From Candidatus Thorarchaeota archaeon (lineage in GTDB: Archaea; Asgardarchaeota; Thorarchaeia; Thorarchaeales; Thorarchaeaceae): DNA of 32,000 nt. This document shows positions 11,886-31,038 of this stretch, one piece after another. A program made the translations under genes and the position numbers. Location of the stretch: NCBI GenBank assembly GCA_008080745.1, contig SHMX01000004.1:330001-362000 (forward strand). The letters are read 5' to 3'. Position 1 is the first letter of the stretch; each line of letters starts with the position of its first letter. The notes beneath the pieces are model-generated. The model was not told where the DNA came from and made no database searches. It saw only the letters and a program-made list of their open reading frames with translations.

Positions 11886-11945
11886 TACATCATAAAATCA
11901 ATATGTTTCCTTACAATATATTTGTCATGGAGGCTTCTCTGAATC

Positions 11946-13181: not shown

Positions 13182-13189
13182 TGAAAGAA

Positions 13190-14473: not shown

Positions 14474-14696
14474 AGGTCACCTTCTTGGATTAGTCAATGT
14501 CAGATGTCGATGTGGTACCTCTAAGCTCCTCATCATAAATATACATCAATTTCTCTTATTGTACTTGCGATTTCCGCTTCGTCAAATAAGAATGCAGTAT
14601 ACGGCATAGGCCAATGTTTTGAAAACAAGAATGCCTTTGGCTATAGCCTTAAATGAAGCTAAATCAAAGGCTCATTAATCAAAGGAGGAATCCTAT

Positions 14697-15863: not shown

Positions 15864-15879
15864 GCTAAGAAATAAAATT

Positions 15880-15914
15880 GAAAAATAATGGAAAAAGGGA
15901 GTTAGTATCTCCCT
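15880..15914 (-). terminator. Hairpin plus U-tract after tbp
   Basis: AGGGAG-ttagtat-CTCCCT (15896-15914), followed on the minus strand by TTTTCCATTATTTTTC. Confidence 0.5.
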
Positions 15915-15933
15915 AGATTCCTTATGTTGGTCT

Positions 15934-16512
15934 TCAGTCCCAATCTTCGCCTTCAGGTATTCGCATGACACCCAATTCGAGAAGCCTGTCCATTACTTTC
16001 TCTGCAGCTTCATCAATCTGAGGTTCGAACTTTGCTCCAGTGATAACAAGCTTTCCTGATCCAAATAATAGAATAACCACTTTGGGATCTCTCATTCGAT
16101 AGATTAAGCCAGGAAATTGTTCTGGTTCATAAAGTGTATTTTCGAGTTTCATTGCAGCGAGTTCAAGATTTAGTTCTGCTCCGAGACTTGCACTTGCAAC
16201 AATATTTTGAACTACAATAATTGGTTTACCAGAAATTTCTATACCTGCTTCACGGATATTTTTGACAATCTTGTGGACTGCACGTTTTGCCTCTTTCTCG
16301 CTCTTGGCACCAGTACAGACCATCTTACCACTATTAAAGATCAGAGTGGCTGTCTTTGGTTTTTTCAAACGGTACACAAGGCCGGGAAATTGTTCAGGAT
16401 CAAATTCAACGTTTGGCATAGTTGCAGCAATCTCATCCAGGTCTAATCTCTGGTTGAGAATGACCGATGCTACTACGTTCTCTATTTTGGTCTTTGGCTT
16501 CGGTCGGGGCAT
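15934..16512 (-). CDS. tbp: Archaeal TATA-box binding protein
   Basis: Two direct repeats (IENVVAS...PEQFPGLVYR...LIFNSGKMVCTGAK and VQNIVAS...YEPEQFPGLIYR...LLFGSGKLVITGAK) and an acidic C-terminal tail. Confidence 0.99.
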   Translation of the reverse strand: MPRPKPKTKIENVVASVILNQRLDLDEIAATMPNVEFDPEQFPGLVYRLKKPKTATLIFNSGKMVCTGAKSEKEAKRAVHKIVKNIREAGIEISGKPIIVVQNIVASASLGAELNLELAAMKLENTLYEPEQFPGLIYRMRDPKVVILLFGSGKLVITGAKFEPQIDEAAEKVMDRLLELGVMRIPEGEDWD

Positions 16513-16531
16513 ATCGGGTTCCTCTCTCCCT

Positions 16532-16556
16532 TTATATACTAGGGCTTAGTATATAA
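16532..16556. promoter_or_regulatory. tbp promoter region: inverted repeat TTATATACTA-gggct-TAGTATATAA
   Basis: Perfect 10-bp arms 20-44 nt upstream of the tbp ATG; each arm contains a TATA-like element. Confidence 0.55.
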
Positions 16557-16775
16557 GTCGCCTTATAAAGGCTATGCAATTTACACAAATAAACCGTTGA
16601 ATAAAACAATGATGCCACGATTTTTTTGATTTTTTATTATTCAGCAAACAGATATGAATGGCTTTCAAATTGGATAAATTCTTGTAACTTATGGTGTGAT
16701 ATGTTTTCTCAGTGATTGAGACGTGTGATTTTTACTTGCATTAATTGACAAACATTTCTTATAACAGATTTCGAT

Positions 16776-17039
16776 TTATCGATATACCGCTATAACACCA
16801 TATCTACTATTTGACGGTGTGTATTTTCCTGATAGAATACATAGCCCTAGTATGAACGCAACTATCGAGATAAGAAAAGGGACGAATGCAAATATCTCTG
16901 GAATATCCATTGATTCACTTTGATTAAGAGCATTTAATCCTAGAAAACCAGCAAATGCTGCAAAGATAAAGAGACATAAACCATATCCACAACGGACCGA
17001 CTTGGACATCTTTTCCTTTTTTGACATAATTTCCATCAC
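16776..17039 (-). CDS. Small hypothetical membrane protein (2 TM)
   Basis: Two hydrophobic helices and a basic N-terminus; start abuts the stop of 17044..17463. Confidence 0.6.
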   Translation of the reverse strand: MMEIMSKKEKMSKSVRCGYGLCLFIFAAFAGFLGLNALNQSESMDIPEIFAFVPFLISIVAFILGLCILSGKYTPSNSRYGVIAVYR

Positions 17040-17043
17040 TTCT

Positions 17044-17463
17044 TCAACTATCGTATTTAATGCGAATATACACTGAGATGATTGCCCCTATGCCTATGCA
17101 GATGATTCCTGCATAAAAGGAGAATAGACCACCATATCCTACCAGACCATTATATATCAGATACGCTGCTACGATGAGAAATACTACAATAGCGAGATTC
17201 AAGTAGAGTTTCGTTCTATCTGTATTACCTTTGGATTTTGGTTTCTTCTTTCTTCTCGATTTCTTTGTTTCTTTCAGTTTAATGGTTTGTAAAAGAAGAA
17301 GTATTAGCAATAAGGCACAGATAAGCAGAATTAGACTCCACCAAAATGGTGGTGGATCCGGGAACACAAAAAATTCAATGAATCCAAGTATGGTGGCACC
17401 TACTATAATTATAGTATAGTTCCGTTTTTCTTCTGGTCCCATATTTTTAATATACTGCATCAT
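17044..17463 (-). CDS. Hypothetical membrane protein (4 TM, Lys/Arg-rich central loop)
   Basis: Two hydrophobic hairpins separated by KLKETKKSRRKKKPKSK. Confidence 0.65.
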   Translation of the reverse strand: MMQYIKNMGPEEKRNYTIIIVGATILGFIEFFVFPDPPPFWWSLILLICALLLILLLLQTIKLKETKKSRRKKKPKSKGNTDRTKLYLNLAIVVFLIVAAYLIYNGLVGYGGLFSFYAGIICIGIGAIISVYIRIKYDS

Positions 17464-17879
17464 AAAAATAACCTAGCAAAAGGATTATGATAATCTGATA
17501 ATAGAGAATAAGAATCGCGTTAGAACAAATCGCATGAGAATCATTTATTGTAAATGCTTCCTATTTTGATTGGAGATGACCGGTAGTACAGCTATATACA
17601 CTCTAAACAGAATTAACATCCATTACTAGGCAAGTCGATATGGGTGGCGGGCAGTAGCGGATATCGTTTAGAAATGTGTATGCAGAAATTTGTTTTCGTA
17701 GTGATATTTGTGTCAACGTTGGTGTTGCAATTCTGGATTTCGCTCTCCATCTTTTTTATAGAATGCAATCAGACTGCATCCTATCAGTGCATGATATTAC
17801 ATCTTTGCGTATTTTGAAACCTGTATTATGAATCATATGCATTACTTTCTTAGTTAGAAAATCTGATAGTACCAATGCA

Positions 17880-18299
17880 ATGAAACGTATCTTGTTTGTA
17901 TGCACAAAAAACGCTGCCAGATCTCAGATTGCCGAAGGCCTTCTGAAACTTCTTGGAAAGGCAGAATATGAGGTTTCAAGTGCTGGCTTGGAGGAAGCCC
18001 CGGAGGTCCATCCTCTTGCAATAACTGTTCTCAGAGAACGGGGGTTTGATTCTTCTGGAATGTACTCAAAGAAAATTGATGAGGAATTACTCAAGCAAGA
18101 ATTTGATCTTGTTGTGACAGTATGTGACCACGCAAAGGACAATTGCCCATTATTTCCAAAAGCGAAGAAGACGATACATTGGTCTGTCAGAGATCCTGCA
18201 AAGAAAAAAGGTACCTACTACGAGTTGCTTGAAGCTTTCAGAAAAATAAGGCGTGAATTAGAGAAACAGATAAAATCAGATATCATTGATAGATTGTAA
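17880..18299 (+). CDS. arsC: Arsenate reductase, thioredoxin-type ArsC (LMW-PTP fold)
   Basis: FVCTKNAARSQIAEG P-loop (Cx5R), SAG, VTVCDHAKDNCP redox Cys pair, HWSVRDP. Confidence 0.85.
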   Translation: MKRILFVCTKNAARSQIAEGLLKLLGKAEYEVSSAGLEEAPEVHPLAITVLRERGFDSSGMYSKKIDEELLKQEFDLVVTVCDHAKDNCPLFPKAKKTIHWSVRDPAKKKGTYYELLEAFRKIRRELEKQIKSDIIDRL

Positions 18300-18522
18300 T
18301 TATGGATTCTAGATGTTTGCTACTCAATCCAAACACCTCTATTTTCTAAGACACTCTATTTGATGTCATAAATTTGATTCTAATTGAGATAGTATTCTAT
18401 TTGTAATAATTAGCGTGCAAATATGAGCTGATGGGAATTTCTGATATGCTCCATTATTTTTTGGTAACTAGACTAGGATTAATAAACAAATTTGTAAATC
18501 TTTCAGAAAAGGATGTGTCATA

Positions 18523-18687
18523 ATGGGATTACATTGTCATGATATGAAAAAAGGACAAGTCTACTATTGTAGTGACTGTGGCTTAGAAATTAAAATAATG
18601 GCTGAATGCACCCAATGCTGTGGTGATGAGGATTCTTGCAGCTGTACCTTCAGTTGCTGCGGAAATGAGCTTAAACTGAAGAAATAA
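18523..18687 (+). CDS. 54-aa Cys-rich mini-protein, desulforedoxin/metallothionein-like
   Basis: Translated by hand: MGLHCHDMKKGQVYYCSDCGLEIKIMAECTQCCGDEDSCSCTFSCCGNELKLKK*, 10 Cys. Purine-rich AAAAGGA upstream and a terminator-like hairpin downstream. Below the ORF track's length cut-off. Confidence 0.85.
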   Translation: MGLHCHDMKKGQVYYCSDCGLEIKIMAECTQCCGDEDSCSCTFSCCGNELKLKK

Positions 18688-18700
18688 CCCTATATTGAGA

Positions 18701-18735
18701 GAGTCAGAATTTTTCTGACTCGTTATATTTTTTTA
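18701..18735 (+). terminator. Hairpin plus U-tract after the Cys-rich mini-protein
   Basis: GAGTCAGAA-ttt-TTCTGACTC perfect 9-bp stem (18701-18721), then GTTATATTTTTTT. Confidence 0.6.
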
Positions 18736-18801
18736 CACTTTAGAAGCAACATTGCTTACAACCTAATACTTAATCTTCATAGTTGTCCTACTTTACCGGA
18801 T

Positions 18802-19266
18802 GTGTATATCTTGCAGAGAGTTGGTAACAAAAGATGGATCAAACCAGCAATCATTCTTATTATTGCGATTCTATCAACCCCATATGCACTGTTGGAGAGT
18901 GCGGGATTAGGAAGTAGTAATCTTCACATTCGAGCTCCATTTTGGGAATACGTTCAATCTTTTTATTTTTCTGGATTTCAACTCCTCGATTTGACTTCTG
19001 TTATTTCTGGCCTTCCATTCTTGATTTTGCGACTATTTTCACTAGTTGTTGTTATCGCTTATTTTCAGGGTAGAATCAGCAAGAATATCACATTATTATT
19101 GAGTAGCATTATCGAACTTGGACCTCTAGTAGTTACTGCAATGGGCATATTAGAAATGGTCAATTCTCCTGCTTATATCGTGATGTGGCCCTTGCCCATT
19201 TTGCTTGGTATAATTTTGATTCTTATTCAGACAATATCAGTAAACGAGCCAACATCTCCGTTTTGA
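18802..19266 (+). CDS. Hypothetical membrane protein (about 4 TM)
   Basis: GTG start, four hydrophobic segments, no family recognised. Confidence 0.65.
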   Translation: MYILQRVGNKRWIKPAIILIIAILSTPYALLESAGLGSSNLHIRAPFWEYVQSFYFSGFQLLDLTSVISGLPFLILRLFSLVVVIAYFQGRISKNITLLLSSIIELGPLVVTAMGILEMVNSPAYIVMWPLPILLGIILILIQTISVNEPTSPF

Positions 19267-19307
19267 AAATGGATGAAACTAGACTGAGCGTAAGGAAACT
19301 GGATACA

Positions 19308-19354
19308 AAAAAAGTGAAAATAAAAAGAAAATCACAAGGAGTGACATCCTTGTG
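19308..19354 (-). terminator. Hairpin plus U-tract after dpsL
   Basis: CACAAGGA-gtgaca-TCCTTGTG perfect 8-bp stem (19333-19354), followed on the minus strand by TTTTCTTTTTATTTTCACTTTTTTT. Confidence 0.65.
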
Positions 19355-19366
19355 TCTTAGATTGCA

Positions 19367-19864
19367 TTAGTACATGTCTTTTGCAATCATCATATCTTCT
19401 ACTAGTGCTTGAAGATCCTCTTCGTGCTCTACTTCATCTTCAAGAATTTCTAGAGCAAGGTTGTATGTCACAGGATCTTTGTCTTTGGTCAATTCCAGTA
19501 TCTTTGAGTATACATCGATTGCACACTGTTCAGCCTCTATGTTCTGATTCAATAATTCTTTGACTGATGGTTTGCTTGGTTCAGCATATCCACAATTAGT
19601 GTGTTCGTACCAATCCTCTGGTTTGAGGATTGGAGTTCCTCCTAACTGGATGATTCTTTCAACTAACATATCCGCATGTCTAAGTTCATCGAGTGCATGT
19701 TCCATAAGTTCAGCTACAACTGCACCCCTCATTGGACCTACTGCGACTTTAGCTCCTACCCAATATTGATAGTATGCTAACCATTCGTCAGCAAAGGCCT
19801 TGTTAAGGTGTTTAATTAGTAGTTCTACATCGAGTTTAACGATTTCTCTTCCTCGTTTTCCCAT
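19367..19864 (-). CDS. dpsL: Dps-like (DpsL, thioferritin) ferritin-family protein
   Basis: MGKRGREIV, LNKAFADEWLAYYQYW, HALDELRHAD, RIIQLGG, the two DpsL Cys (TNCGY and AEQCAI) and DEVEHE. Likely start is the ATG at 19864 rather than 19870. Confidence 0.9.
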   Translation of the reverse strand: MGKRGREIVKLDVELLIKHLNKAFADEWLAYYQYWVGAKVAVGPMRGAVVAELMEHALDELRHADMLVERIIQLGGTPILKPEDWYEHTNCGYAEPSKPSVKELLNQNIEAEQCAIDVYSKILELTKDKDPVTYNLALEILEDEVEHEEDLQALVEDMMIAKDMY

Positions 19865-20153
19865 AATCATTCTATCCTAATGATTTATTGACCCCGTCCA
19901 AATTTTCATTTTATTTCCAATTCAGACACAGGCGAGTAAATCAACTATAGTGTAGCTTCCTGTCTCTAATAAACCCTTGTTAACCTCCATGATATTATAC
20001 TGCTAGTAAATCATCTCCTTTATCGGAATCTTTTTACATACATAACGAATAATTAACTATAGATAATGAGATGAATAATAGTTGGAATTCTTGTAGTACG
20101 AATTTCCTGCCATCCATCATGCCATCGTTGTACCTGAGAAGAGAGTAAACCAC

Positions 20154-22736
20154 GTGAAAATAAAACGAGTAAGAAGATACAGAGGTCCCAGCATCTATAG
20201 TACAGATATATCAGTAATCAAACCGATAGTTCTTATTGAGGACTCGGATCATATCGCATCTTCGAAAATAGACTCAATTCTGTCCGAATTTGAAATAATA
20301 AATCAAGAAGATGAACTGCATGCTGATAATATATGGGATATCCTCCCCTCTTTGACACTTGCTCTTTTGCAGAATTCTGGCGGAAAACACCTTCAAACTG
20401 CAAAGAGTCTGAATAAATCTGACACAAGGTATGAGTATATAGTTGAGATGGATTTGGAACCAGTGGCGGTATCGGCTGCTTATGAATCGGTCAATATTAT
20501 CAATGATTTAATCAAGGGTGAAAAACCCAACATTTCGAAGATTTTGGAAGAGCTATCTGAAGAACGATATCGTTATGATTTAGGTCCAAGTACAAAATCT
20601 ATTGTAAAAGCAGCTCAAGATAGAGATATTCCGACAATTCGTCTCGATCAATACAGCCTAGTCCAATTAGGTTTTGCCTCGAAAAACAGAAAGATTGAGG
20701 CTGCAACAACTGACGATACGTCTTTTGTTGGTATGGAGATTGCACAATCCAAGTTGATGTCTAAAATAATGCTTCAGAGAGCAAAGCTACCCTATGTTCA
20801 AGGGGAGATGGTAGTTTCAAAAATTCAAATCGAATCAATTGTAGAACAATTAGGTTTTCCTCTGGTTGTAAAACCAGCTGACGCAAGTAAAGGCAGAGGA
20901 GTTACAACCAACATTGAAAATATCGATGATATTTATACGGGATATGAGAAAGCAAAAGAATTCTCAGAGTATATTTTAATTGAGCAATTTGTAGAGGGAA
21001 GGGATTACCGTGTTTTAGTTGCAGGCGGTGAAGTACTAGCAGTAGCTGAACGTATTCCAGCCCATGTTATTGGTGATGGAGAAAAAACTGTTTCAGAATT
21101 GATAAAGTTGGAGAATAACAATCCCCTTAGAGGAGAAGGACATGAACTACCTCTTACGAAAATTTCTGTTGACTCTAGTCTAAAGAAAACCCTCGAATCT
21201 CAAAATATGGATCTTGAAACTGTTCCTAAAGAGGGAGAATTTGTGCAACTAAAGCCAACCGCTAATCTCAGCACCGGGGGAATCGCCATCGATAGAAGTA
21301 AAGAGATTCATCCCGATAATGAGGAGATGGTAATACGATCATCTAGGATTGTTGGACTCGATGTCTGTGGTATCGATTTGATTACAACTGATATCTCAAA
21401 ATCTCTCTGGGAAACAGGAGGGAAAATAATAGAACTGAATACAGCTCCTGGTCTCCGAATGCATCTATTCCCTACTGAGGGCGAAGCCCAAAATGTAGGT
21501 GAGAAAATATTGGATACTCTTTTTTCCAAAGGTGAGAATGGTAGAATCCCCATTGTAGCGATAACTGGAACAAATGGAAAAACAACAGTCACTCTATTGA
21601 CGTCCCATATACTCAGACTAGATGGAAAAAGAATAGGAATGATTACTACTGAAGGAATTCATGTTCAAGGGACTAGAATATTCCGCGGTGACTGTACTGG
21701 TCCATGGTCTAGTGGTGCGATTCTTCGAGACCCTACTGTGGACATAGGCGTATTCGAAACGGCCCGTGGTGGTATTCTAAAACGTGGTCTCGGTTTCGAT
21801 AGAACTCAGGTTTCTGTGTTTCTCAATGTTAGTGAGGAACATCTTGGTGAGCACGGGATTAATACAGTGGACGAGATGGCAGAAGTCAAAGCCTTGCTCT
21901 ATGATATTGTAGATGTTGATGGATACGGAGTGATAAATTGTAGTGATGATAGGGTCTGGAAAGAATCAAAGAGAATAGAAGGGAAAAAGATTGGTTTCTC
22001 TATTGACCCAGATAACCCTCGTCTAGCAGAATTGGAAGAACAAGGTTTTCCTTATATTACTGTGAAATCCAACAGAATTGTGATTGTGGATTCGGGACGT
22101 TCAATCGAAGTATCAGAATTAGATGCTATTCCCTTGACTTACGAAGGGATTGCAGAGTTTAACATAGAGAATGTTTTAGCAGCTTGTGCTGTAGCATATT
22201 CCATGGATGTTTCTGTTGATGTCATTCAATCAGGATTGCTATCATTTTCTCCCACTCCAGAACTGAATCCAGGAAGAGCTAATCTCATAAGAATTGGAAA
22301 TTCATACATCTTTGTAGATTATGCGCATAATATTGCTGCTATGAAATTAATAGCTCGTTTCTTGGGACGTTTGAAATCTAGATGGGGTCTTAGAACACTA
22401 AAAGCCGTAGTGAGTCTTCCTGGAAATAGACGAGAAGTAGAATATTATAAAATCATGCGAATTATTGCTGATTCTTTCGATGAAATCTATATCAAAGAAG
22501 ACAAGGATCTTAGAGAACGAGAAAGGGGCGAAATGACTGAGATTCTCTCCAATACACTTCTCGAATCAGGTTTTCCTGAGGATCACATCTATACTGGTTT
22601 CGTAGAACCAGAGGGACTTCAACAAGCTCTCCAAGATTTGCATGATGATGACTTGATTTTCGTGAATTTCGAAGATGTTGATATTATCCTATCAACAATT
22701 CGTGAATTCAAGAGAAAGAAAATAGGGGGACTCTAA
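20154..22736 (+). CDS. cphA: Cyanophycin synthetase (CphA1-type: N domain, ATP-grasp G domain, Mur-ligase M domain)
   Basis: RGP N-terminus, LGPST, VQLG, VVKP, VAERIPAHVIGDG, TANLSTGGIAID, HPDN, GIDL, ELNTAPGLRMH, RIPIVAITGTNGKTT, GDCTGP, FETARGGILKRGL, EHLG, PGR, DYAHN and IKED, in CphA1 order. GTG start. Confidence 0.95.
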   Translation: MKIKRVRRYRGPSIYSTDISVIKPIVLIEDSDHIASSKIDSILSEFEIINQEDELHADNIWDILPSLTLALLQNSGGKHLQTAKSLNKSDTRYEYIVEMDLEPVAVSAAYESVNIINDLIKGEKPNISKILEELSEERYRYDLGPSTKSIVKAAQDRDIPTIRLDQYSLVQLGFASKNRKIEAATTDDTSFVGMEIAQSKLMSKIMLQRAKLPYVQGEMVVSKIQIESIVEQLGFPLVVKPADASKGRGVTTNIENIDDIYTGYEKAKEFSEYILIEQFVEGRDYRVLVAGGEVLAVAERIPAHVIGDGEKTVSELIKLENNNPLRGEGHELPLTKISVDSSLKKTLESQNMDLETVPKEGEFVQLKPTANLSTGGIAIDRSKEIHPDNEEMVIRSSRIVGLDVCGIDLITTDISKSLWETGGKIIELNTAPGLRMHLFPTEGEAQNVGEKILDTLFSKGENGRIPIVAITGTNGKTTVTLLTSHILRLDGKRIGMITTEGIHVQGTRIFRGDCTGPWSSGAILRDPTVDIGVFETARGGILKRGLGFDRTQVSVFLNVSEEHLGEHGINTVDEMAEVKALLYDIVDVDGYGVINCSDDRVWKESKRIEGKKIGFSIDPDNPRLAELEEQGFPYITVKSNRIVIVDSGRSIEVSELDAIPLTYEGIAEFNIENVLAACAVAYSMDVSVDVIQSGLLSFSPTPELNPGRANLIRIGNSYIFVDYAHNIAAMKLIARFLGRLKSRWGLRTLKAVVSLPGNRREVEYYKIMRIIADSFDEIYIKEDKDLRERERGEMTEILSNTLLESGFPEDHIYTGFVEPEGLQQALQDLHDDDLIFVNFEDVDIILSTIREFKRKKIGGL

Positions 22737-22738
22737 AA

Positions 22739-25252
22739 TTGAAATTGGAGATATCTAAACAACTATTCTTTGGTCCGAATATTTATGTCAATTCTCCGGG
22801 GGTTCTATTTACCTTATCTGTAGATAACAGTGTATCGATTGATAATATCATTCTTGGCGAATCATTTGGCGATGCTTCATCCTTCAAAAGTGCACCTATT
22901 GACATATCTGGAATGAATATCCTTGATGGAATCATTAGTATCGTTTCATACTTTTTTGAAAAACAGAATCGACCTCTAGAATTTCTTACTATAAGTAGTG
23001 AAAAAGAAGAAAATACAGCATTCATAAAGTCGATTTTTCCTCAAGTGATAGGGCACGCTCTAGAATATGTGACCCAGATATTCAGCGACATCTCTTCAGG
23101 GACTACTATAACGGAGAAAGAATGGACTGAACAGTATAATCGTTTCTTTTTGCTCCATGGTGTAGGAATCAATACTAGGCTCATAGCAGATAAGGCACAC
23201 TCTCTAGGGATTCCTGTTCAATCAATACATAGATCCATGATTCAATTTGGTTATGGAAAAAACCGCAAACTTGTTTGGAGAGGCGTACCCGAAGAATCCA
23301 GTGTTCTGGCAGTTGACATAGCAACATACAAATCATCACTGAATAGAATCTTAGAAGATCTGGGATATTATATCCCTCGCAGCCATCTTTCTCTCGATTT
23401 GGAGGACGCAAAACAGATTGCTGATTTACTCGAGTATCCCGTTGTAGTAAAATCTTCTCAAGAACGATTTGGCCGTGGCACATTTGCAGATATTAGAAAC
23501 CCCAGTGAGCTAGAAGAAGCTTACAAGAATTGTAGTTCTTCTGAAGAACGAGTTATTATCCAAGAATTTGTTGGAGGAAATCTGTACCGACTAGTCGTAA
23601 TAGGAGAATCGGTCTTAGCTATTCAGAATAGTACCCCATCAATAACAGGTGATGGTGAACACACCATAAATGAACTAGTAGAGCGAGAAAATAATCGTCC
23701 GATAAGAGGTAATCTTGACGATGCTCCATTATCTAGGATTCCTATTGGACTTGATATGCAACTGACTCTTCAAAGACAGGGATATTCTCTTGATGATGTA
23801 TTAGAAGAGGGAGTTACGGTTCACCTTAGTAGTGTATCAACTGTTGATACTGGAGCAGGTAGTACAGATGTCACCCACAATCTTCATCCACTGAACGAAT
23901 TTCTAGCAAAAAGAATCTCTAAAGCTCTAGGATTATCTATAGCTGAGATTCACATTGTAAGTGATACAATATCTCAACCGTTAGTAGAGGGTCGGGGGAA
24001 GATAGTAGCTTTATCACCCCGAGTAGATCTGAGAACATATCATTATCCCTTAGATTCAGATCGCCCTGATATAGAAAAAATAATGATTGAGAGTTTCTTT
24101 GGGGACGAAGATCCATCAATTCCTCTGATTGCAATATCCGGAAGTCATGGAAAGACAATTGTTACCGCCATTCTAGACCATCTTCTTCGATTAACCGGGT
24201 ATTCAACGGGATTGGCGAACTCTGTTGGTTTGTATATTGATGGGTCGCAAGTTTCTAGAAATTCTGGAGCAAGCATTGATGGTCATAAAGCCATAATGAT
24301 AGATCCTAAGGTCGATTTTGCAATATTAGAACAAAGCTCCCTTGATTCAAAAAGAGAGGGATTAGCATTTCATCGGGCTAGCACTTCTGTTATTTTGAAT
24401 TCTTATGAACGAAGAGAGGTCTACCCTGAGCTTCATGAAGAGATACATCAAGGAAGAGTACTCCTACTTAGATCAACAAAGCCTGATGGATTTTGTGTGT
24501 TGAATGTTGCAATTCCCGAGTTTGACGAACTTGTTAAGGAATCGGCTGGTGAGATAGTACTCATAAGTTTAGACTCAGAACATCCCCGACTAAGGGATAT
24601 CCAGCAGGAGAAACACGTCATTGCTACAGTCATGGGCAAGATGCTTGTGTTGAAGGACAAGGGAAAGATAATACCTCTTGTGAATTATCAGAATGCACCT
24701 CTAACATTTGAGGGAATTGCCGAGTTCAATATTGAGAATCTATTAGCTGCTGCAGTCACAGCCTACGTTAATGGTGTGGAACCGAGCGATATTAGAAATG
24801 CACTACTCTCATTTTCTAATCGTCCAAAACAGTTACCAGGTGCTATGAACCAGTTGGAAATTGATAATAGAACCGTGTTCGTTGATTTAGCAACCAAACC
24901 GAGCAATATCACAATTGCGTCAAGATTTGTTGACCGATACAGAAGAAAAATGGATTTGGGAAATCTATATGGTCTTCTAAGATTGCCAGAGAGAACTGCT
25001 AGTAAAGATATAGAAAAAACACTGACCGAGGTGGCTACTCACTTCGAGAAGGCTCTGGTCTATGATGTGGAACACCCAGATATTATTGCTCAATGTGGAG
25101 GATGTTTTGATGTTGTTGACGATTTTAACGAAGGATTTCAATCTATCTGGTCATTTCTTGAAGATAACGATATTCTTCTCATTACGACAATAAAGCCAAA
25201 TGAAGTCTTAGAATACATCGATGAAATAAAGGAGAATATGAACAAGGAATGA
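22739..25252 (+). CDS. Cyanophycin synthetase paralog (CphA-prime-like), catalytic motifs degenerate
   Basis: Collinear with the upstream CphA over 837 aa (GPN, IQFGYG, ITGDGEHTINELV, HPLN, IPLIAISGSHGKT, PLTFEGIAEFNIEN), but the ExN, NLSTGG, ETARGG, DHLG and DYAHN motifs are lost. TTG start 2 nt after the cphA stop, with GGGGGA upstream. Confidence 0.88.
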   Translation: MKLEISKQLFFGPNIYVNSPGVLFTLSVDNSVSIDNIILGESFGDASSFKSAPIDISGMNILDGIISIVSYFFEKQNRPLEFLTISSEKEENTAFIKSIFPQVIGHALEYVTQIFSDISSGTTITEKEWTEQYNRFFLLHGVGINTRLIADKAHSLGIPVQSIHRSMIQFGYGKNRKLVWRGVPEESSVLAVDIATYKSSLNRILEDLGYYIPRSHLSLDLEDAKQIADLLEYPVVVKSSQERFGRGTFADIRNPSELEEAYKNCSSSEERVIIQEFVGGNLYRLVVIGESVLAIQNSTPSITGDGEHTINELVERENNRPIRGNLDDAPLSRIPIGLDMQLTLQRQGYSLDDVLEEGVTVHLSSVSTVDTGAGSTDVTHNLHPLNEFLAKRISKALGLSIAEIHIVSDTISQPLVEGRGKIVALSPRVDLRTYHYPLDSDRPDIEKIMIESFFGDEDPSIPLIAISGSHGKTIVTAILDHLLRLTGYSTGLANSVGLYIDGSQVSRNSGASIDGHKAIMIDPKVDFAILEQSSLDSKREGLAFHRASTSVILNSYERREVYPELHEEIHQGRVLLLRSTKPDGFCVLNVAIPEFDELVKESAGEIVLISLDSEHPRLRDIQQEKHVIATVMGKMLVLKDKGKIIPLVNYQNAPLTFEGIAEFNIENLLAAAVTAYVNGVEPSDIRNALLSFSNRPKQLPGAMNQLEIDNRTVFVDLATKPSNITIASRFVDRYRRKMDLGNLYGLLRLPERTASKDIEKTLTEVATHFEKALVYDVEHPDIIAQCGGCFDVVDDFNEGFQSIWSFLEDNDILLITTIKPNEVLEYIDEIKENMNKE

Positions 25253-26064
25253 AGACCCGTTTTGTATTAATTGGCGGAAATGAAGATCACTATCCAGAAG
25301 AACCGTTATTTCTTGCAATATCTGAGAATCTAGATTATAACGCGACTCTGCTCATTGTTCCAACAGCTAGTGGTTATCCGGAATCGACATCTAAAACGTA
25401 TAGACTGCTCTTTCGGAATATGGGCTTTAGTGACGTTCAAATCTTGGATGTGTTGAACCGAGATGATAGTTATTCTCAAAAGAACATCCGCAAAGTGGAG
25501 GAATGTGATGCCATATTCTTTGTAGGTGGGGATCAATCTCGTCTTACAAGAAATGTGCGTGGTACAGACCTACATACTGTCTTTCGTGAACGAATTCAAG
25601 ATGGTATTATTGTAGGAGGCACCAGTGCGGGTGCAATGGCATTGAGTGAAAAGATGATTGCGGGAGGAAGCCCTGGACATGCCCTGAGAAAGGGGGAAGT
25701 GAATCTCTCTGAAGGTCTGGGAATTCTTCCACATCTCGTTATTGATACACACATGATAACTCGAAATCGATATTGGCGACTTGTCCATGCTTTGGCTGAA
25801 TATCCAGATAAGATTGGAATAGGAATATCTAATGATACAGGTGTAATGATCGAGGATACCACATTGACAACTCTAGGAACTGATCTCGTTGCGATTCTAC
25901 GAGGTGATAAGATTGTCTTCAATAATTCTCCTAAGATAGACGAATCAGAGCGAATTGGAGTTGGTCCCCTTAATTGTACAATCTTACCCGCAGGCTATTC
26001 CTATAGTCTTGACACTCAAGAGATACAAGAAGCAGACCTGACATTTCCATATACTCACAAATAA
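25249..26064 (+). CDS. cphB: Cyanophycinase (peptidase S51)
   Basis: LIGGNED, IVPTAS, FFVGGDQSRL, GGTSAGA (Ser nucleophile), IDTHMITRNRYWRL (His plus three Arg). GISNDT stands in place of GIDEDT. ATGA overlap with the previous gene. Confidence 0.92.
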   Translation: MKTRFVLIGGNEDHYPEEPLFLAISENLDYNATLLIVPTASGYPESTSKTYRLLFRNMGFSDVQILDVLNRDDSYSQKNIRKVEECDAIFFVGGDQSRLTRNVRGTDLHTVFRERIQDGIIVGGTSAGAMALSEKMIAGGSPGHALRKGEVNLSEGLGILPHLVIDTHMITRNRYWRLVHALAEYPDKIGIGISNDTGVMIEDTTLTTLGTDLVAILRGDKIVFNNSPKIDESERIGVGPLNCTILPAGYSYSLDTQEIQEADLTFPYTHK

Positions 26065-26071
26065 TCACGAG

Positions 26072-28141
26072 TTGGTAAAAATGACTATTTACAAGATGGC
26101 ACTCGAAGAATTCAATCCTACTATCGCCAAGGATATAATTCGAAGACTCTCAATGATTCATAGACCTCAATTTTCGTCCAGCTATTCAGATGCGGTGACA
26201 GAAGTCGAAAAATTTCTTAAAGAATATGATATTGACTATCAAATCAAGAAATTTCCAGCAGACCGTAGAACGAAATTCAACAACTTTCCCTCTTCTCCTT
26301 TATGGGTTCCTAAAAGTGGCTTTTTGGAGATTATCGATCCCGATGTTTCGGAAATAGGTCTCAAATCTCTATTACCAAATAAACGCCTTGCAAGTTTTAG
26401 AGAAGTCCCCTTGTCTATTATACAGCGGAGTATTCCAACTCCTTCAGGCTCTGTAGAATGTGAGTTGGTTGATATTGGTCGTGGATATTCTGATAGAGAT
26501 TATGAGCATATAGATGTGGAAGGAAAAGTTGTTTTAACTTCATCAAATCCAGATAGAATTAGAAAACTTGCAGTTCACAAATATGGAGCCGTCGGTATTG
26601 TTACTGATAGAAGAGAAAGTTTTCCTCTTCAAGAAGAACCTGCACTTAGTAACTATAGACTTTATTCTAGTTTCTGGTGGTATGACGAAGACCCCAGCGC
26701 ATTTGGATTTGTTATCACTCCCTTTCATGGAGATCGACTTAGAAATTATTTGAAGAATAATCAAATCTTTGTTCGTGCCCAGATTGACGCTGAATTTCGA
26801 GATGGAGAGTTTGAGGTCGTTGTAGCGGAGATTAAAGGAAAAACAGACCAAGAAGTCATTGTCACCTCTCATCTAGATCATCCAAAACCCAGTTCTGTTG
26901 ACAATGCTGCAGGGGTTGCTACTTCATTGGAACTAGCTAGGACTCTGAAAGCTCTCATTGATAATGGATCTCTTAACACGCCTATTAGGACGATTAAGTT
27001 CGTTTTTATGAATGAATTCACTGGTTCTTCAGCGTATATTCGAGATAGAATGAATGATGGGTCCCTTGAAAGAATTGTAGGCGGAATTAACATTGATATG
27101 GTGGGTAATGACCAAGAACGTACTGGTGGGTCTTTTCTCGTAGTGCTACCCTCTCTAGCGAATTATTCATACATAGGCCCTGTTGCTAGTTGGCTCTTCT
27201 CCTATTTAATCGGGCATGAGCCAGACTTCGCAGGAAGTCAAGATGTTGCTGACTTCAAGTGGCAGATTGTTCCATTCAGTGGCGGCAGTGATTATTACAT
27301 CTACAATGCTCCCAGTATTGATGTACCTATGATTGGAGTAACAAGCTGGCCTTATACTTACTATCACACCGATAATGACCTACCAGAGATGATATCGGAA
27401 AAAATGATTAAGAAGTACGGTGTATTTGCATCAAGTCTTATCTATCTACTTAGTGATCTCGATGAGCTCTCTGTACCCTGGCTTATTGATATGATAATAT
27501 CCGAATTCGGAAAGAAGGTCGATCTGATAAGTCAAAATCTTCTAACAACAATAGTTACATCTCGAGGAATTCGCATCGGAAAAGGAAAGAAATCTCTAAT
27601 TCAGAGTCAAGATTGGGCATACAATCGCATGATACTACTACGGGAGTCTTATCATGAAGCAATTCTCTCCATTAGACGATTAGTTCCCGATGTATCAGAT
27701 AATTTGATTTGGGACGCTTTTGAAGAGATGAACGATTCTATCAAGATTGAGAAGGAACGATTAGAACGAATTTTTGAGCAATGGGATATCCCTCAGTCTC
27801 GAGAGGAGAAACATGAGGATATGGCAAATCTAATTCCTATTAGAGAGGTTGGTGTGGGTCCAATTGACAGAAGCTATTTCTATTCGGAACTATCATACGA
27901 AGAAGAACGGGAGATTCGAAGAATAGTAGGAGACCTAAGTGTTACTACACTTCCAGTGTTTACACTCATCGATTTCTGGATTGATGGTAGAAACAGTGCA
28001 AAGAAGATTGCTGATAATGTCTATGCTGAAACAGGTTTTAATCTGGATGAAGTTGTCTATAAGCTTCTCGGATTTCTTGAAAAACATAATCTCATTCGAT
28101 TTGGGAAAAATGAAGATACTCAAAGTGAGAAATCTCATTAG
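26072..28141 (+). CDS. M28-family Zn metallopeptidase with PA domain and C-terminal winged helix (DUF4910-like)
   Basis: PA-like insert (DIGRG...DVEGKVVL), ligand motifs SHLDH, VDNAAG, NEFTG, NIDMVG, GGSD and YYHT; C-terminal WIDGRNSAKKIA...LGFLEKHNLI. Starts 7 nt after the cphB stop (TTG; alternative ATG at 26081). Confidence 0.85.
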   Translation: MVKMTIYKMALEEFNPTIAKDIIRRLSMIHRPQFSSSYSDAVTEVEKFLKEYDIDYQIKKFPADRRTKFNNFPSSPLWVPKSGFLEIIDPDVSEIGLKSLLPNKRLASFREVPLSIIQRSIPTPSGSVECELVDIGRGYSDRDYEHIDVEGKVVLTSSNPDRIRKLAVHKYGAVGIVTDRRESFPLQEEPALSNYRLYSSFWWYDEDPSAFGFVITPFHGDRLRNYLKNNQIFVRAQIDAEFRDGEFEVVVAEIKGKTDQEVIVTSHLDHPKPSSVDNAAGVATSLELARTLKALIDNGSLNTPIRTIKFVFMNEFTGSSAYIRDRMNDGSLERIVGGINIDMVGNDQERTGGSFLVVLPSLANYSYIGPVASWLFSYLIGHEPDFAGSQDVADFKWQIVPFSGGSDYYIYNAPSIDVPMIGVTSWPYTYYHTDNDLPEMISEKMIKKYGVFASSLIYLLSDLDELSVPWLIDMIISEFGKKVDLISQNLLTTIVTSRGIRIGKGKKSLIQSQDWAYNRMILLRESYHEAILSIRRLVPDVSDNLIWDAFEEMNDSIKIEKERLERIFEQWDIPQSREEKHEDMANLIPIREVGVGPIDRSYFYSELSYEEEREIRRIVGDLSVTTLPVFTLIDFWIDGRNSAKKIADNVYAETGFNLDEVVYKLLGFLEKHNLIRFGKNEDTQSEKSH

Positions 28142-28208
28142 GAGTCAAATTTGATACGGTGACAGGATTTTTGGGTTGGATATTTCATGAAGACGGGAAT
28201 CGGTAATA

Positions 28209-28538
28209 TTATTCCTGCAAATTATCTGATTCTTCATCAACCCTGAGAACCAGAGGTCTTGCTTCTAGTATTGATTGAACAATTTTACTACGTCCACTCT
28301 GGAGAAATCTCCAAATAGTTCCTCTAGATACGCCCATTATCTGGCCAGCTTGTTCCTGATACATACCATCATAATCTACCAACTTTATCGCTTCGAATTC
28401 TGCAGCATCAAGAAATATCTGTTCTCCTTCACTAGAAGGTTCAGGTATCATCTTTCGAGCTTCAGGTATTGTGCTGATCTCGGGTTGAATTGGTAATCTC
28501 CCACGTCTTCCTCGTCGTCGTCGTCTCATTTTTCTCAC
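28209..28538 (-). CDS. DUF134-family predicted DNA-binding protein
   Basis: Poly-Arg N-terminus, IFLDAAEFEAIKLVDYDGMYQEQAGQIMGVSRGTIWRFLQSGRSKI (HTH). GTG start, alternative ATG at 28529. Confidence 0.9.
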   Translation of the reverse strand: MRKMRRRRRGRRGRLPIQPEISTIPEARKMIPEPSSEGEQIFLDAAEFEAIKLVDYDGMYQEQAGQIMGVSRGTIWRFLQSGRSKIVQSILEARPLVLRVDEESDNLQE

Positions 28539-28619
28539 TCTTCAATTGTGTGTAATATATATTTTAGTTGCTCTAGCACCATCATTCGTTATATTTTTGA
28601 ATAACCTTTATATACACTG

Positions 28620-28646
28620 TTAACTATATTATAGTTAATTAACTAT
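28620..28646. promoter_or_regulatory. Three alternating TTAACTAT half-sites forming two overlapping palindromes
   Basis: TTAACTATA-t-TATAGTTAA (28620-28638) overlaps ATAGTTAATTAACTAT (28631-28646); both are perfect. Confidence 0.45.
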
Positions 28647-28869
28647 GTTTAACGGTCGAAATGTTATGAATATCCCTCGGTTAAAGCACATGTTGAAATC
28701 GTTGTCCAAGAAACAGAATCTGCGAACAAAACTTCTGAGGTCTATTGGAAAGAAGAATATTGATTCTGAAGACCGATTCTATCTCTCTGATTGTGCTAAA
28801 TCAATGCAATTCGAAAAACACACCGATTTCTTGAATGAATCTGGCTACAATTGTGGCATCGCGCATTAA
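28645..28869 (+). CDS. Small hypothetical protein (basic), doubtful
   Basis: 74-aa ORF filling an otherwise empty gap; no family recognised and no clear RBS. Confidence 0.35.
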   Translation: MFNGRNVMNIPRLKHMLKSLSKKQNLRTKLLRSIGKKNIDSEDRFYLSDCAKSMQFEKHTDFLNESGYNCGIAH

Positions 28870-28936
28870 TAATGATCAACCGCTTCAGTTATTATTTGAT
28901 AACATAATTATGGACCATTTACAAAATTTTATATTC

Positions 28937-28972
28937 GTTCATATGCACAGTATTATTATCGTGCGTATGCAC
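28937..28972. promoter_or_regulatory. Tandem near-palindromic operators, consensus GTGCATATGCAC
   Basis: GTTCATATGCAC (28937-28948) and GTGCGTATGCAC (28961-28972), each one mismatch from the perfect palindrome, just downstream of TTTTATAT (28927-28934). Confidence 0.55.
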
Positions 28973-28988
28973 ATAATGAGATGATCTA

Positions 28989-29270
28989 ATGAGATACGGA
29001 AGACGCGGAAGAGGCGGTGGATATGGTCGAGGAGCATATCCCGGAAACGGTCCGTTCAGTCATTTGCCACCATGGGAGCGACCTGGTTGGATTTATGGAC
29101 GCGGTGCTTGTTGGACTATGGGTTATTGGAACGAAGATGGTACACCTATGCCAACGGAGAATATTGATAGTCTCAAACGGCAACGGGATCTCCTTCAAAC
29201 TCAACTTGAAACCATGAAGCAAGAGCTTGAACGAATAGAAAATCGTATGAAAGAACTAGAATCCCAGTGA
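28989..29270 (+). CDS. DUF5320-like Gly/Arg-rich protein with C-terminal coiled coil
   Basis: MRYGRRGRGGGYGRG, PPWERPGW, GRGACW, then heptads LKRQRDLLQTQLETMKQELERIENRMKELE. This family usually accompanies DUF134. Confidence 0.85.
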   Translation: MRYGRRGRGGGYGRGAYPGNGPFSHLPPWERPGWIYGRGACWTMGYWNEDGTPMPTENIDSLKRQRDLLQTQLETMKQELERIENRMKELESQ

Positions 29271-29305
29271 AGGAATTACCTTCATTGGTTATTCTATTTT
29301 ATTTT
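29265..29305 (+). terminator. Hairpin plus U-rich tract at the DUF5320-like stop
   Basis: CAGTGAAGG-aatta-CCTTCATTG stem (one G-U pair), followed by GTTATTCTATTTTTATTTT. Confidence 0.5.
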
Positions 29306-29430
29306 GTAAAAATATCTTCACACAATTAGAGTGGTTTTGAATATCAATTCTCATCTTTATTTCTAAAAGCCTATTAGGAATGATTTATTGACAATGAATA
29401 AAACATTCATGATTCATTGGAGATTTGTAA

Positions 29431-29655
29431 ATGAGTTCACACATTTTACTAAATCAAGTGGATAGACTCATCAATTCCGGTGCTGTAAGGATTTTCATTC
29501 CAATAAGCGTCCTCAACCAAATTGATGACAATGTCCGTGATGCAATTTCTCGTGTCTGCAAAGGTAATGATATAGAATTACAATTGACCACAAGCGATCG
29601 AGTAAAAGGTTTGGTCCATATGCCTGATGGTGAAAAAGTAATGATTGAGCTGTAA
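29431..29655 (+). CDS. Small hypothetical protein (74 aa)
   Basis: GGAG RBS upstream of the ATG; globular alpha/beta-like composition; no family recognised. Confidence 0.65.
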   Translation: MSSHILLNQVDRLINSGAVRIFIPISVLNQIDDNVRDAISRVCKGNDIELQLTTSDRVKGLVHMPDGEKVMIEL

Positions 29656-29679
29656 CGACCTAAACAAATTCATTGATTT

Positions 29680-30039
29680 TTAAGGACTCCGTGATTCATT
29701 AAGATATTCAATGTACTCTATCCCCCATTTATGAATGGAGTCGAGAACTTTTTTCAATGTCTTTCCGATTTCTGTAAGTGAATATTCAACTCGTGGGGGG
29801 ACTTCTTTGTATACTTCACGTGTCACAATCCCATCTGTTTCTAGTTCGCGTAAATGCTTGGTAAACATTCGTCGTGTAACGAATGGCATCTTTTTGTGAA
29901 GCTCCCCCGATCTATGTGTCCCATTCATGAGGTGATAGATTATCAGTGGTTTCCATTTTCCTCCAATAACTTTGAGGGTCACCTCAACAGGGGGACCATG
30001 TTCACCAAATTTACGGAGTTCTCTCTTAGAACTAGCCAT
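29680..30039 (-). CDS. HxlR/DUF24 (MarR-type wHTH) transcriptional regulator
   Basis: PVEVTLKVIGGKWKPLII, MFTKHLRELETDGIVTREVYKEVPPRVEYSLT. Confidence 0.95.
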   Translation of the reverse strand: MASSKRELRKFGEHGPPVEVTLKVIGGKWKPLIIYHLMNGTHRSGELHKKMPFVTRRMFTKHLRELETDGIVTREVYKEVPPRVEYSLTEIGKTLKKVLDSIHKWGIEYIEYLNESRSP

Positions 30040-30044
30040 ATAAT

Positions 30045-30094
30045 CACTCTCTTGATAGTATCAGGTTTGTTCCTATGTTACTTCCTTGATAGTA
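30045..30094. promoter_or_regulatory. Two near-identical 16-bp boxes YACT-N8-AGTA between hxlR and the NmrA-like gene
   Basis: CACTCTCTTGATAGTA (30045-30060) and TACTTCCTTGATAGTA (30079-30094), 13 of 16 positions identical. Confidence 0.5.
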
Positions 30095-30162
30095 CTTCCC
30101 TAAATACTCCTACTACTAGGATTAGTTTAGATAATGCCGATTCATTTGAAGTGATTATTGAT

Positions 30163-31038
30163 ATGAAATCTAAATCTGAAGTCCTAATCATAGGAGCTCC
30201 TGGCAATGTTGGTAGTTATGTTGTTGATTATGCGTTAGCCCAAAAAATGAAATTACGTATTGCTGCATATGATTTTAATGATGCTAAAGAGTCCTTCAAA
30301 GATGATGTAGATATCTGTTTTTTTGATTTTTTTGATCAATCAACATATGAATCAGCTTTCTCAGGAATTAAACAAGCTTTCATTATTCGACCTCCTCAGA
30401 TTGTTGACACAAAGGAGGGGATGATTCCCGCACTTCAATTTGCTGAAGAAGTCGGAGTGGAGCATATGGTATTTCTATCACTGTCCGGCATTAATCGTAG
30501 AATGCCTCACTACTATGTGGAACAGTTTTTGAAGAGGAGCTCAATGCGATACACCTTTTTACGAGCTGGATTCTTCATGCAAAACTTTTCCACTCGATTC
30601 TTACAAGATATTCGTGATCGTGACGAGATTTTTGTTCCTGCTGGAAAGGGGAGTATATCTCTCATAGATACGCGTGATATAGCTTCTGTTGCAGTTTATG
30701 CACTTACGAACCAAGCAAAAGAAAACCGAATATACGAACTTACAGGTAATGTTTCGCTCAATTATTACGATATCGCGAATGTATTTACTAAAATTCTGGG
30801 GAGAGATATTGTTTATCCGAAGCCATCTCCTAAAGACTTCAAAAAGAAACGATTAATGCTTGGGTGGCATCCTGAAATGATTGAGGTATTGGATATGTTA
30901 TTTAGAATGGTTAGATGGAGATTAGCTGGAAAAACATCAGATAATCTTGAGAAATTATTGAACCGAGAACCCATTACATTGGAAAAATTTGTTGAGGATC
31001 ATAAGTATCTATGGATGAAGAATACGGGAGGAGTATGA
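30163..31038 (+). CDS. NmrA-like atypical SDR, NAD(P)H-binding (291 aa)
   Basis: The start is moved from 29854 to the ATG at 30163 (MKSKSEVLIIGAPGNVG), because the extension would overlap the divergent hxlR. Further motifs: YTFLRAGFFMQNF, IDTRDIA and YELTG. Confidence 0.9.
   Translation: MKSKSEVLIIGAPGNVGSYVVDYALAQKMKLRIAAYDFNDAKESFKDDVDICFFDFFDQSTYESAFSGIKQAFIIRPPQIVDTKEGMIPALQFAEEVGVEHMVFLSLSGINRRMPHYYVEQFLKRSSMRYTFLRAGFFMQNFSTRFLQDIRDRDEIFVPAGKGSISLIDTRDIASVAVYALTNQAKENRIYELTGNVSLNYYDIANVFTKILGRDIVYPKPSPKDFKKKRLMLGWHPEMIEVLDMLFRMVRWRLAGKTSDNLEKLLNREPITLEKFVEDHKYLWMKNTGGV

Follow-up and report, generated by a model that had tools for sequence, protein, structure and literature searches.

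A four-gene cassette for predicted cyanophycin synthesis and degradation, with a doubly eroded synthetase paralogue, in a Thorarchaeon

Cyanophycin is a nitrogen-storage polymer (multi-L-arginyl-poly-L-aspartate). The DNA analyzed here, a window of 32,000 nucleotides from a Thorarchaeota genome (GCA_008080745.1, contig SHMX01000004.1, positions 330,001 to 362,000), contains four co-oriented genes on its forward strand that an earlier note on the same DNA had described as a complete cyanophycin operon: cphA1 (20154–22736; 860 aa, GTG start), encoding a synthetase with N, G (ATP-grasp) and M (Mur-ligase-like) domains; cphA' (22739–25252; 837 aa), encoding a full-length CphA paralogue in which both ligase sites are eroded; cphB (25249–26064; 271 aa), encoding an S51 cyanophycinase; and a gene for an M28/DUF4910 metallopeptidase (26072–28141; 689 aa). 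These four gene identities, already proposed in the earlier note, hold by Pfam and NCBIfam profile scores, and taken as a whole the locus is best explained, with a probability that we put somewhat above even, as a laterally acquired Thorarchaeal module that makes and degrades cyanophycin, with CphA' as a non-catalytic partner.

In the proposed working of this module CphA1 would be the active enzyme, its G domain extending the poly-Asp backbone and its M domain adding Arg to each Asp side chain, and it would depend on primers, as its N domain has no zinc site. CphA' would have come from a duplicated cphA1 of the archaeal clade, losing the catalytic residues and keeping its fold, the P-loop of its M domain and its Gcore surface for dimerization, and would serve as a non-catalytic subunit of mixed CphA1/CphA' oligomers, in scaffolding, in binding of polymer or primer, or in regulation. 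CphB would act as a Ser-His-Asn exo-cyanophycinase of family S51 releasing beta-Asp-Arg, and the M28/DUF4910 peptidase would process cyanophycin-derived peptides, most likely beta-Asp-Arg to Asp and Arg.

The synthetase and its eroded paralogue

CphA1 scores 893.7 bits against the NCBIfam equivalog model TIGR02068 (cut-off 850; residues 72–852) and 572.8 bits against the Synechocystis enzyme (PDB ID: 7LG5) over residues 108–844, and it has the N-G-M architecture, with matches to ATP-grasp, Mur_ligase_M and Mur_ligase_C. Motifs were compared in an alignment of 238 CphA sequences. The G domain of CphA1 contains K240, R286 (equivalent to Arg309), NLSTGG (371–376) and E427-x-N429, and the M domain contains GTNGKT (472–477), ETARGG (535–540), the Arg of PGR and DYAHN (722–726), with Glu-His as the acid-His pair; the ExN, NLSTGG, GTNGKT, ETARGG and DYAHN motifs that the earlier note had read in gene 1 are thus all in place. 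No Cys...HxxEH pattern was found in residues 1–170, where the Cx19HxxEH zinc site of the N domain would lie; this site is present in 219 of the 238 compared sequences and absent from CphA1, from CphA' and from all members of the related archaeal CphA1 clade. The site makes primers, and it is present in ~80% of CphA1 enzymes and hence not obligatory (PMC9262961). Because its N domain has no Cx19HxxEH site, CphA1 should be primer-dependent. At the position of SuCphA1 His267, whose replacement in the H267A mutant inactivates that enzyme (PMC9262961), the cassette CphA1 has Lys246; the residue is Lys in the whole archaeal clade and Gln in Thermoanaerobacter CphA1.

CphA' reaches 420 bits against TIGR02068, below the cut-off of 850, and Mur_ligase_C was undetected in a Pfam search of the protein. 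In all four orthologues compared the ATP-grasp ExN motif is replaced by A/S-x-S, so that both Mg ligands are gone, and NLSTGG is degenerate; in the M domain, again in all four, the Asp-His pair is lost, PGR has become PGA (the Arg731 equivalent) and DYAHN has become DLATK. In SuCphA1 the double mutation D585A/H586A is inactivating (PMC9262961). Four elements are retained in CphA': in the M domain the P-loop, as GSHGKT, and the ETARGG Glu, and in the G domain the VVVK Lys of ATP-grasp and the residue equivalent to Arg309; the replacement motifs are themselves conserved (LPGAMN, VDLATK, GSHGKT). The copies are free of stop codons over 832–842 codons at 40–66% identity, and in the closest pair the nonsynonymous divergence (dN) of CphA' is 0.247, against 0.238 for CphA1; synonymous divergence (dS) is saturated in every pair, leaving the NG86 dN/dS ratio undefined and dN alone usable. 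The conserved replacements, together with a dN like that of CphA1, argue that CphA' has been kept by selection for a non-canonical role. By its score and its residues, CphA' is related to CphA1 by descent without being a functional member of that group.

The same constraint can be read in another way, namely that CphA' is still an enzyme, with altered chemistry or an altered substrate, for example one that uses another amino acid or acts on dipeptides as does CphA2, the cyanobacterial dipeptide-polymerizing enzyme (PMC10273328). The full length of the protein, the strong constraint on it and the four retained elements just listed would fit such a role, and CphA2, too, is a paralogue that occurs beside CphA1 and whose M domain does not function. 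However, CphA2 needs its G domain to be active, and its M domain is reduced (PMC10273328), whereas CphA' is of full length, has an M domain with a P-loop and is eroded in the G site too, having lost the G-domain Mg ligands; and with the ExN Mg residues, NLSTGG, the Asp-His pair, the Arg731 equivalent and the His of DYAHN replaced in all four orthologues, an enzymatic CphA' is improbable. Given the strong constraint and the modeled pairing, CphA' is most likely a non-catalytic partner of CphA1.

In the solved CphA1 tetramers the Gcore–Gcore contact is the large dimer interface and has a part in the binding of primers (PMC9427784). The modeled G-domain heterodimer of CphA1 and CphA' scores 0.62, against 0.07 for the best of three controls; 58 of 80 solved complexes attain that mark, as do 2 of 110 mismatched pairs. 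The runs share at least 84% of their contacts, the partner has a predicted local distance difference test score (pLDDT) of at least 79, and the modeled interface is again Gcore–Gcore, formed by CphA1 residues 164–205 and CphA' residues 163–203. The model supports binding of the two domains; since homo-oligomers of the CphA family have been solved, the pass may reflect likeness only, and what it shows is a CphA-like dimer surface retained in CphA' and not the formation of mixed oligomers.

Sequences of the CphA' type are very rare, with about five in 15 billion proteins. A HMMER scan, run exhaustively over 1.84 billion representatives, returned two CphA'-type entries only, followed by CphA1 proteins of the archaeal clade (370 and 345 bits) and then ordinary CphA1 at no more than 294 bits. 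Maximum-likelihood analysis places the four CphA' in a single long-branched clade whose internal order mirrors that of the four cassette CphA1, and the cassette CphA1 are sister to another archaeal clade (family f30 and two proteins from metagenome-assembled genomes, MAGs) with an SH-aLRT support of 87. CphA' and the archaeal clade lie on one side of a branch with a support of 91, and constraining CphA' to group with the cassette CphA1 is not rejected and gives a slightly better tree (p-AU 0.58). The simplest reading of these relationships is that cphA1 was duplicated in tandem in the cassette's ancestor, with fast divergence thereafter. The CphA1 proteins of Heimdall type (family f14) lie elsewhere in the tree, among bacterial sequences, which implies at least two acquisitions of cphA1 by Asgard lineages.

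The cyanophycinase and the linked metallopeptidase

CphB scores 202.9 bits against TIGR02069 (cut-off 126.6) and 147 bits against a known cyanophycinase structure (PDB ID: 7UQV); it was also aligned to PDB ID: 3EN0. Of the catalytic triad the Ser (in GTSAG) and the His (in DTH) are kept, and Asn stands at the position of the Glu (GIGISNDT). Asn occupies this position in all four cassette CphB proteins (GIGI-S/T/G-NDT), whereas other archaeal CphB proteins, 3EN0 and 7UQV have Glu; the cassette enzymes thus depart from the canonical Ser-His-Glu triad.

The product of gene 4 matches Pfam Peptidase_M28 at 72.5 bits (cut-off 21.3) and DUF4910 at 51.9 bits; these were its only Pfam matches, and no NCBIfam model matched. 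In an AlphaFold2 (AF2) model with a pLDDT of 89.9 the protein is divided into protease, PA-like and helical domains, with a further small domain at the C-terminus. The best structural match is PDB ID: 3K9T (VIA Z 31.7, root-mean-square deviation 2.7 Å over 358 residues), followed by PDB ID: 2EK8 and BSAP (YwaD, PDB ID: 6HC6) with VIA Z of ~30 and by GCPII (PSMA) and TfR with Z of 27–29. The protein therefore resembles PA-domain M28 aminopeptidases and GCPII both in fold (Z of 27–32 overall) and in the five co-catalytic metal ligands (H267, D277, E315, D342 and H432), which are invariant in 32 family members, and it has the protease, apical and helical domains in the same order as GCPII and TfR. 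It differs from them in an extra C-terminal domain and in the residue before the ligand Glu: by sequence alignment the general-base Glu of the EE motif is absent at position 314, which is Asn here and Pro (27), Ala (3) or Gly (1) in the 31 others.

The M28 protein is suggested to be a beta-Asp-Arg hydrolase. The M28 gene is linked to the cph genes, and to cphB in particular, in every cassette seen; the Arg of beta-Asp-Arg would present a free alpha-carboxylate, like the C-terminal residue that is removed by GCPII-type enzymes; and no IaaA or IadA was found in the window's genome, which is an estimated 98% complete. Of these three arguments the last is weak. Asparaginase_2 (PF01112) was likewise not found in this genome; one or two such proteins are encoded in each of the relatives G001, G392 and G017. 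Asparaginase_2 and AstE/AspA genes thus occur in Thorarchaeota genomes, and a dedicated new dipeptidase is not required; with the AstE/AspA gene present in every relative checked, the argument that the M28 protein must be the dipeptidase because IaaA and IadA are missing is weakened. The protein lies outside the Asparaginase_2, isoaspartyl-dipeptidase and AstE/AspA M14 families, so that if it is a cyanophycin dipeptidase it would represent a new class. The claim of the earlier note that the operon is complete hinges, as to degradation, on this suggested dipeptidase role.

The relatives of gene 4 in other contigs supply a further observation. About 80 M28/DUF4910 proteins were found at ~30% identity, and in the three of their genomic contexts that were examined (L112, L113 and L114) there are no cph genes; in each, a gene for an M28/DUF4910 protein of ~680 aa is followed directly by an unannotated open reading frame (ORF) of 372–377 aa with no Pfam hit, and the two may form a conserved two-gene unit.

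An alternative, which we regard as possible though doubtful, is that the M28 protein is not the terminal dipeptidase, and that it instead trims chains into primers for CphA1 or has another role, such as protein processing or hydrolysis of a different peptide pool. Another source of primers would be useful to a CphA1 and a CphA' that both have an N domain without the primer-generating site; the family has no canonical general-base Glu, and its chemistry would thus be uncertain; the relatives at ~30% identity occur unlinked to cph genes, beside the ORF of ~375 aa; and the cassette-bearing genome G392 encodes Asparaginase_2 (IaaA-like) proteins elsewhere. Set against this alternative are the linkage to cphB kept in every cassette, the missing match to IaaA or IadA in this genome, and the fact that enzymes of the M28 and GCPII kind work as exopeptidases on residues at chain ends, which suits a dipeptide better than endo-cleavage.

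The last three of the points just named in favor of that alternative weigh also against the proposed working of the module as a whole, and others join them. An AstE/AspA-family protein that, from its sequence, could be CphZ-like is encoded in this genome and in all Thorarchaeota relatives checked, with the cassette or without it. With Asn in its triad, CphB may have a low or a changed activity. The Lys of CphA1 at the position of His267 may speak against an active synthetase, a point tempered by the presence of Lys throughout the archaeal clade and of Gln in Thermoanaerobacter CphA1. The modeling behind the hetero-oligomer would probably bring together the G domains of any two CphA proteins. 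Finally, no archaeal cyanophycin has been shown experimentally (PMC9723716). A module of this kind, with CphA' as a non-catalytic partner, nevertheless seems to us the somewhat favored account of the locus. The more ambitious form of it would be a heteromeric synthetase in which CphA' is obligatory and offsets the missing primer site or regulates around it, joined to a new M28/GCPII-like class of dipeptide hydrolase, in a working and mechanistically distinct system of nitrogen storage in Asgard archaea; this we hold only tentatively, as less likely to be right than wrong.

The host genome and the chromosomal setting

The host is a Thorarchaeon (Asgard archaea) from marine sediment. The gene for the TATA-binding protein (TBP; 15934–16512, reverse strand; Pfam TBP 210.5 bits) lies 3.6 kb upstream of the cassette, as the earlier note had it, and its product is 95–98% identical to the TBPs of dozens of Thorarchaeota MAGs, which turns the Asgard host that the note had thought possible into a definite one. 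The contig that holds the window is 416.7 kb long and belongs to a genome of 3.16 Mb, with an estimated completeness of 98% and an estimated contamination of 4.8%. In a blastn comparison with a genome of the same genus that has no cphA (G001), window positions 11343–19955 and 28255–28536 match adjacent parts of one contig (C115), such that 77 bp in G001 stand at the place of 8299 bp here, with archaeal synteny on both sides. The colinear flanks and the difference between 77 and 8299 bp point to a clean insertion or deletion, of approximately 19980–28240 (8.3 kb), between a ferritin-like gene on the left (19367–19870, reverse strand; Pfam Ferritin 105.5 bits) and a DUF134 gene on the right (28209–28538, reverse strand; Pfam DUF134 82.2 bits), both of which are syntenic in G001.

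Could the cassette instead be bacterial DNA that was attached to archaeal sequence through mis-assembly or binning? The cph genes are mostly bacterial, the MAG has its estimated 4.8% of contamination, and five of its small contigs have a deviant base composition. Yet the cassette sits inside the 416.7-kb contig with Thorarchaeota synteny on either side, and it is spanned by two Logan contigs (215,683 bp; marine-sediment metagenome runs) that cover positions 13001–31000 with zero differences. These are separate assemblies of two runs that possibly come from the source sample, so they confirm the linkage and not its independence. The composition of the cassette is typical of the genome, with 39.2% guanine plus cytosine (GC) against 41.2% and a tetranucleotide distance at the 89th percentile of the genome, which is no outlier; its CphA1 groups with other archaeal CphA1; and in a further genome of the family the same cassette lies within a contig of 148.6 kb. 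Flank synteny, spanning assemblies and ordinary composition thus exclude a chimeric contig for practical purposes, and the check proposed in the earlier note, that tbp and cph be placed on one molecule, is answered by the colinearity with G001 on both flanks and by the Logan contigs. The five deviant contigs (C14, C15, C17, C18 and C19; 2.4–14.6 kb, outside the window) have a GC content of 62–65%, against 39–43% for all others, and are probably contaminants of the MAG.

Within the cassette, genes 1 and 2 are separated by 2 nt, genes 2 and 3 overlap by 4 nt and genes 3 and 4 are separated by 7 nt, exactly the spacings first reported. For the M28 gene, an ATG at 26081, 9 bases later than the annotated start, is the one that matches its three orthologues and is therefore the probable true start; the gap is then 16 nt. 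The AT-rich intergenic region 5' of cphA1 (19871–20153, forward strand; 283 bp) was read directly: its left part is the conserved region upstream of the ferritin-like gene, its right part came with the cassette, and it presumably carries the predicted promoter of the cassette. A 23-nt block upstream of the ferritin-like gene (19933–19955) is 100% identical in G001, in surroundings that are only ~70–76% identical, and may be a conserved regulatory site. An oligo-T run lies 3' of the M28 gene, at about 28166–28170.

Distribution of the cassette and comparison with known systems

The order cphA1, cphA', S51 gene, M28/DUF4910 gene recurs at three other places, all on Asgard-type contigs: on a 148.6-kb contig of GCA_014730275.1 (contig C34 of G392; locus L012), on a 15-kb contig of GCA_975970015.1 (L013), and on an 8.9-kb Logan contig (L107). 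A 3.1-kb JGI contig carries a partial cassette (cphA', S51 gene and the next gene). GCA_014730275.1 bears the NCBI label 'Candidatus Lokiarchaeota archaeon', yet it belongs to the same family as the window's Thorarchaeota genome. Among the cassettes the four proteins have diverged to similar degrees (40–74% identity), and a four-gene order kept at such distances is far beyond chance. Neighboring genes differ at each cassette locus, and the same gene order at different loci indicates a mobile module. CphA is found in 11 of 400 genomes of the phylum and, within the window's family, in 2 of 86, in both as a cphA1-cphA' tandem pair. A separate search of genome contigs with CphA1 gave one match, in a Heimdall MAG at 41% identity. 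The cassette is, as gene order and protein divergence indicate, a rare and apparently mobile module that arrived or spread among Thorarchaeota and other Asgard genomes as a unit. Signs of a mobile element were sought at its ends: tRNA genes, flanking direct repeats and convincing inverted repeats are all absent, and the ORFs scanned to its left and right include no integrase.

In another Thorarchaeota genus of the same family (G017, contig C38, about 11620–12540) a thermosome gene and a POR gene enclose a deletion scar. It consists of an ORF of 308 aa that joins the opening ~270 codons of cphA1 to the final ~40 of the M28 gene, and its CphA1 part is 88% identical to the copy on the Logan contig. 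Such a loss by internal deletion, with the signs of erosion in CphA', the Asn in the CphB triad and the Lys at the His267 position, could suggest a relic in decay, from which this organism no longer obtains polymer. However, the four ORFs are all intact in this cassette and in the three others, which have diverged to 40–55% identity and have saturated synonymous sites, and the seemingly eroded positions are alike in all copies; positions that are identical across copies are old and retained, and a relic is accordingly very unlikely. The three further contigs, the partial contig and the scar also supply the same four-gene synteny in archaeal genomes that the earlier note had proposed to look for, and its suggestion of lateral acquisition followed by remodeling is supported, as acquisition of a unit and as remodeling relative to bacterial kits, by the absence of the segment from G001, the CphA tree, the eroded motifs and the Asn-triad CphB.

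The bacterial cphA1-cphB clusters (Synechocystis, Acinetobacter baylyi; PDB IDs: 7LG5, 7WAC, 3EN0 and 7UQV) have the same two core enzymes in one operon. They share with the Thorarchaeal cassette the N-G-M architecture and the G- and M-site motifs of CphA1, and the S51 fold with Ser and His of CphB; the cassette differs in its Asgard host, in having no Cx19HxxEH site, in the Lys at the His267 position, in the Asn in place of the triad Glu of CphB, and in the extra cphA' and M28 genes. Genes named cphA and cphA' have reportedly been described in beta-proteobacteria by Fuser and Steinbuchel (2007). Two cphA genes in series occur in Accumulibacter, in Tetrasphaera and in 'Group 1' clusters (PMC10687191); the side-by-side arrangement of synthetase paralogues is alike, whereas the archaeal CphA' is a separate lineage, nearest to CphA1 of the archaeal clade. 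The erosion of both active sites in the archaeal paralogue may be a further difference.

In 2018 Bulzu et al. (bioRxiv 10.1101/385732) described genes for making and degrading cyanophycin in the Heimdallarchaeia MAGs LC_2 and LC_3, a 2022 discussion of archaeal cyanophycinases remarked that experimental evidence for them is missing (PMC9723716), and NCBI names the Lokiarchaeota-labelled orthologue a cyanophycin synthetase; the statement in the earlier note that no archaeal cyanophycin system had been demonstrated is therefore right as to experimental proof, and the genes themselves were already in print. The Heimdall loci and the Asgard contigs with a single cphA1 and S51 genes (L109 and L111) resemble the cassette in combining cphA1 with a cyanophycinase; these loci differ from it in having a single cphA1 and an S51 protein with the normal Glu, and neither cphA' nor an M28 gene. 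L109 (GCA_012974725.1) is labelled Candidatus Korarchaeota; on this contig actin and Arf/Ras-type small GTPase genes, an Asgard-like content, stand next to the cph genes, and the label looks wrong. Its cph cluster has a layout of its own, in which cphA1 is accompanied by an aspartate aminotransferase-like gene and by S51 genes for two proteins, of 259 and 409 aa.

The established dipeptidases of cyanophycin, IaaA, IadA and CphZ (PMC10206079, PMC9974463), are likewise encoded in clusters with cphA1 and cphB, and CphZ is a zinc metallopeptidase, as is predicted for the M28 protein; the M28/DUF4910 fold is, however, unrelated to the Ntn-asparaginase, amidohydrolase and M14/AstE folds of these three. 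No description was found in the literature of a cassette of the Thorarchaeal type, with its doubly eroded paralogue, Asn-triad CphB, linked M28 gene and archaeal CphA1 clade without the zinc site.

Cyanophycin metabolism has been characterized in bacteria only, and gene surveys have covered bacterial genomes only (PMC10206079). With cph genes in Asgard MAGs previously published, the general picture of cyanophycin is unchanged by the present analysis. What the cassette offers is a clean, testable case of a putative pseudoenzyme subunit in a polymer synthetase with known homo-oligomeric structures, a natural Ser-His-Asn cyanophycinase and a candidate fourth class of cyanophycin dipeptidase. For Asgard biology it would mean that Thorarchaeota of the sediment have at their disposal a horizontally mobile module predicted to serve in the storage of nitrogen and carbon.

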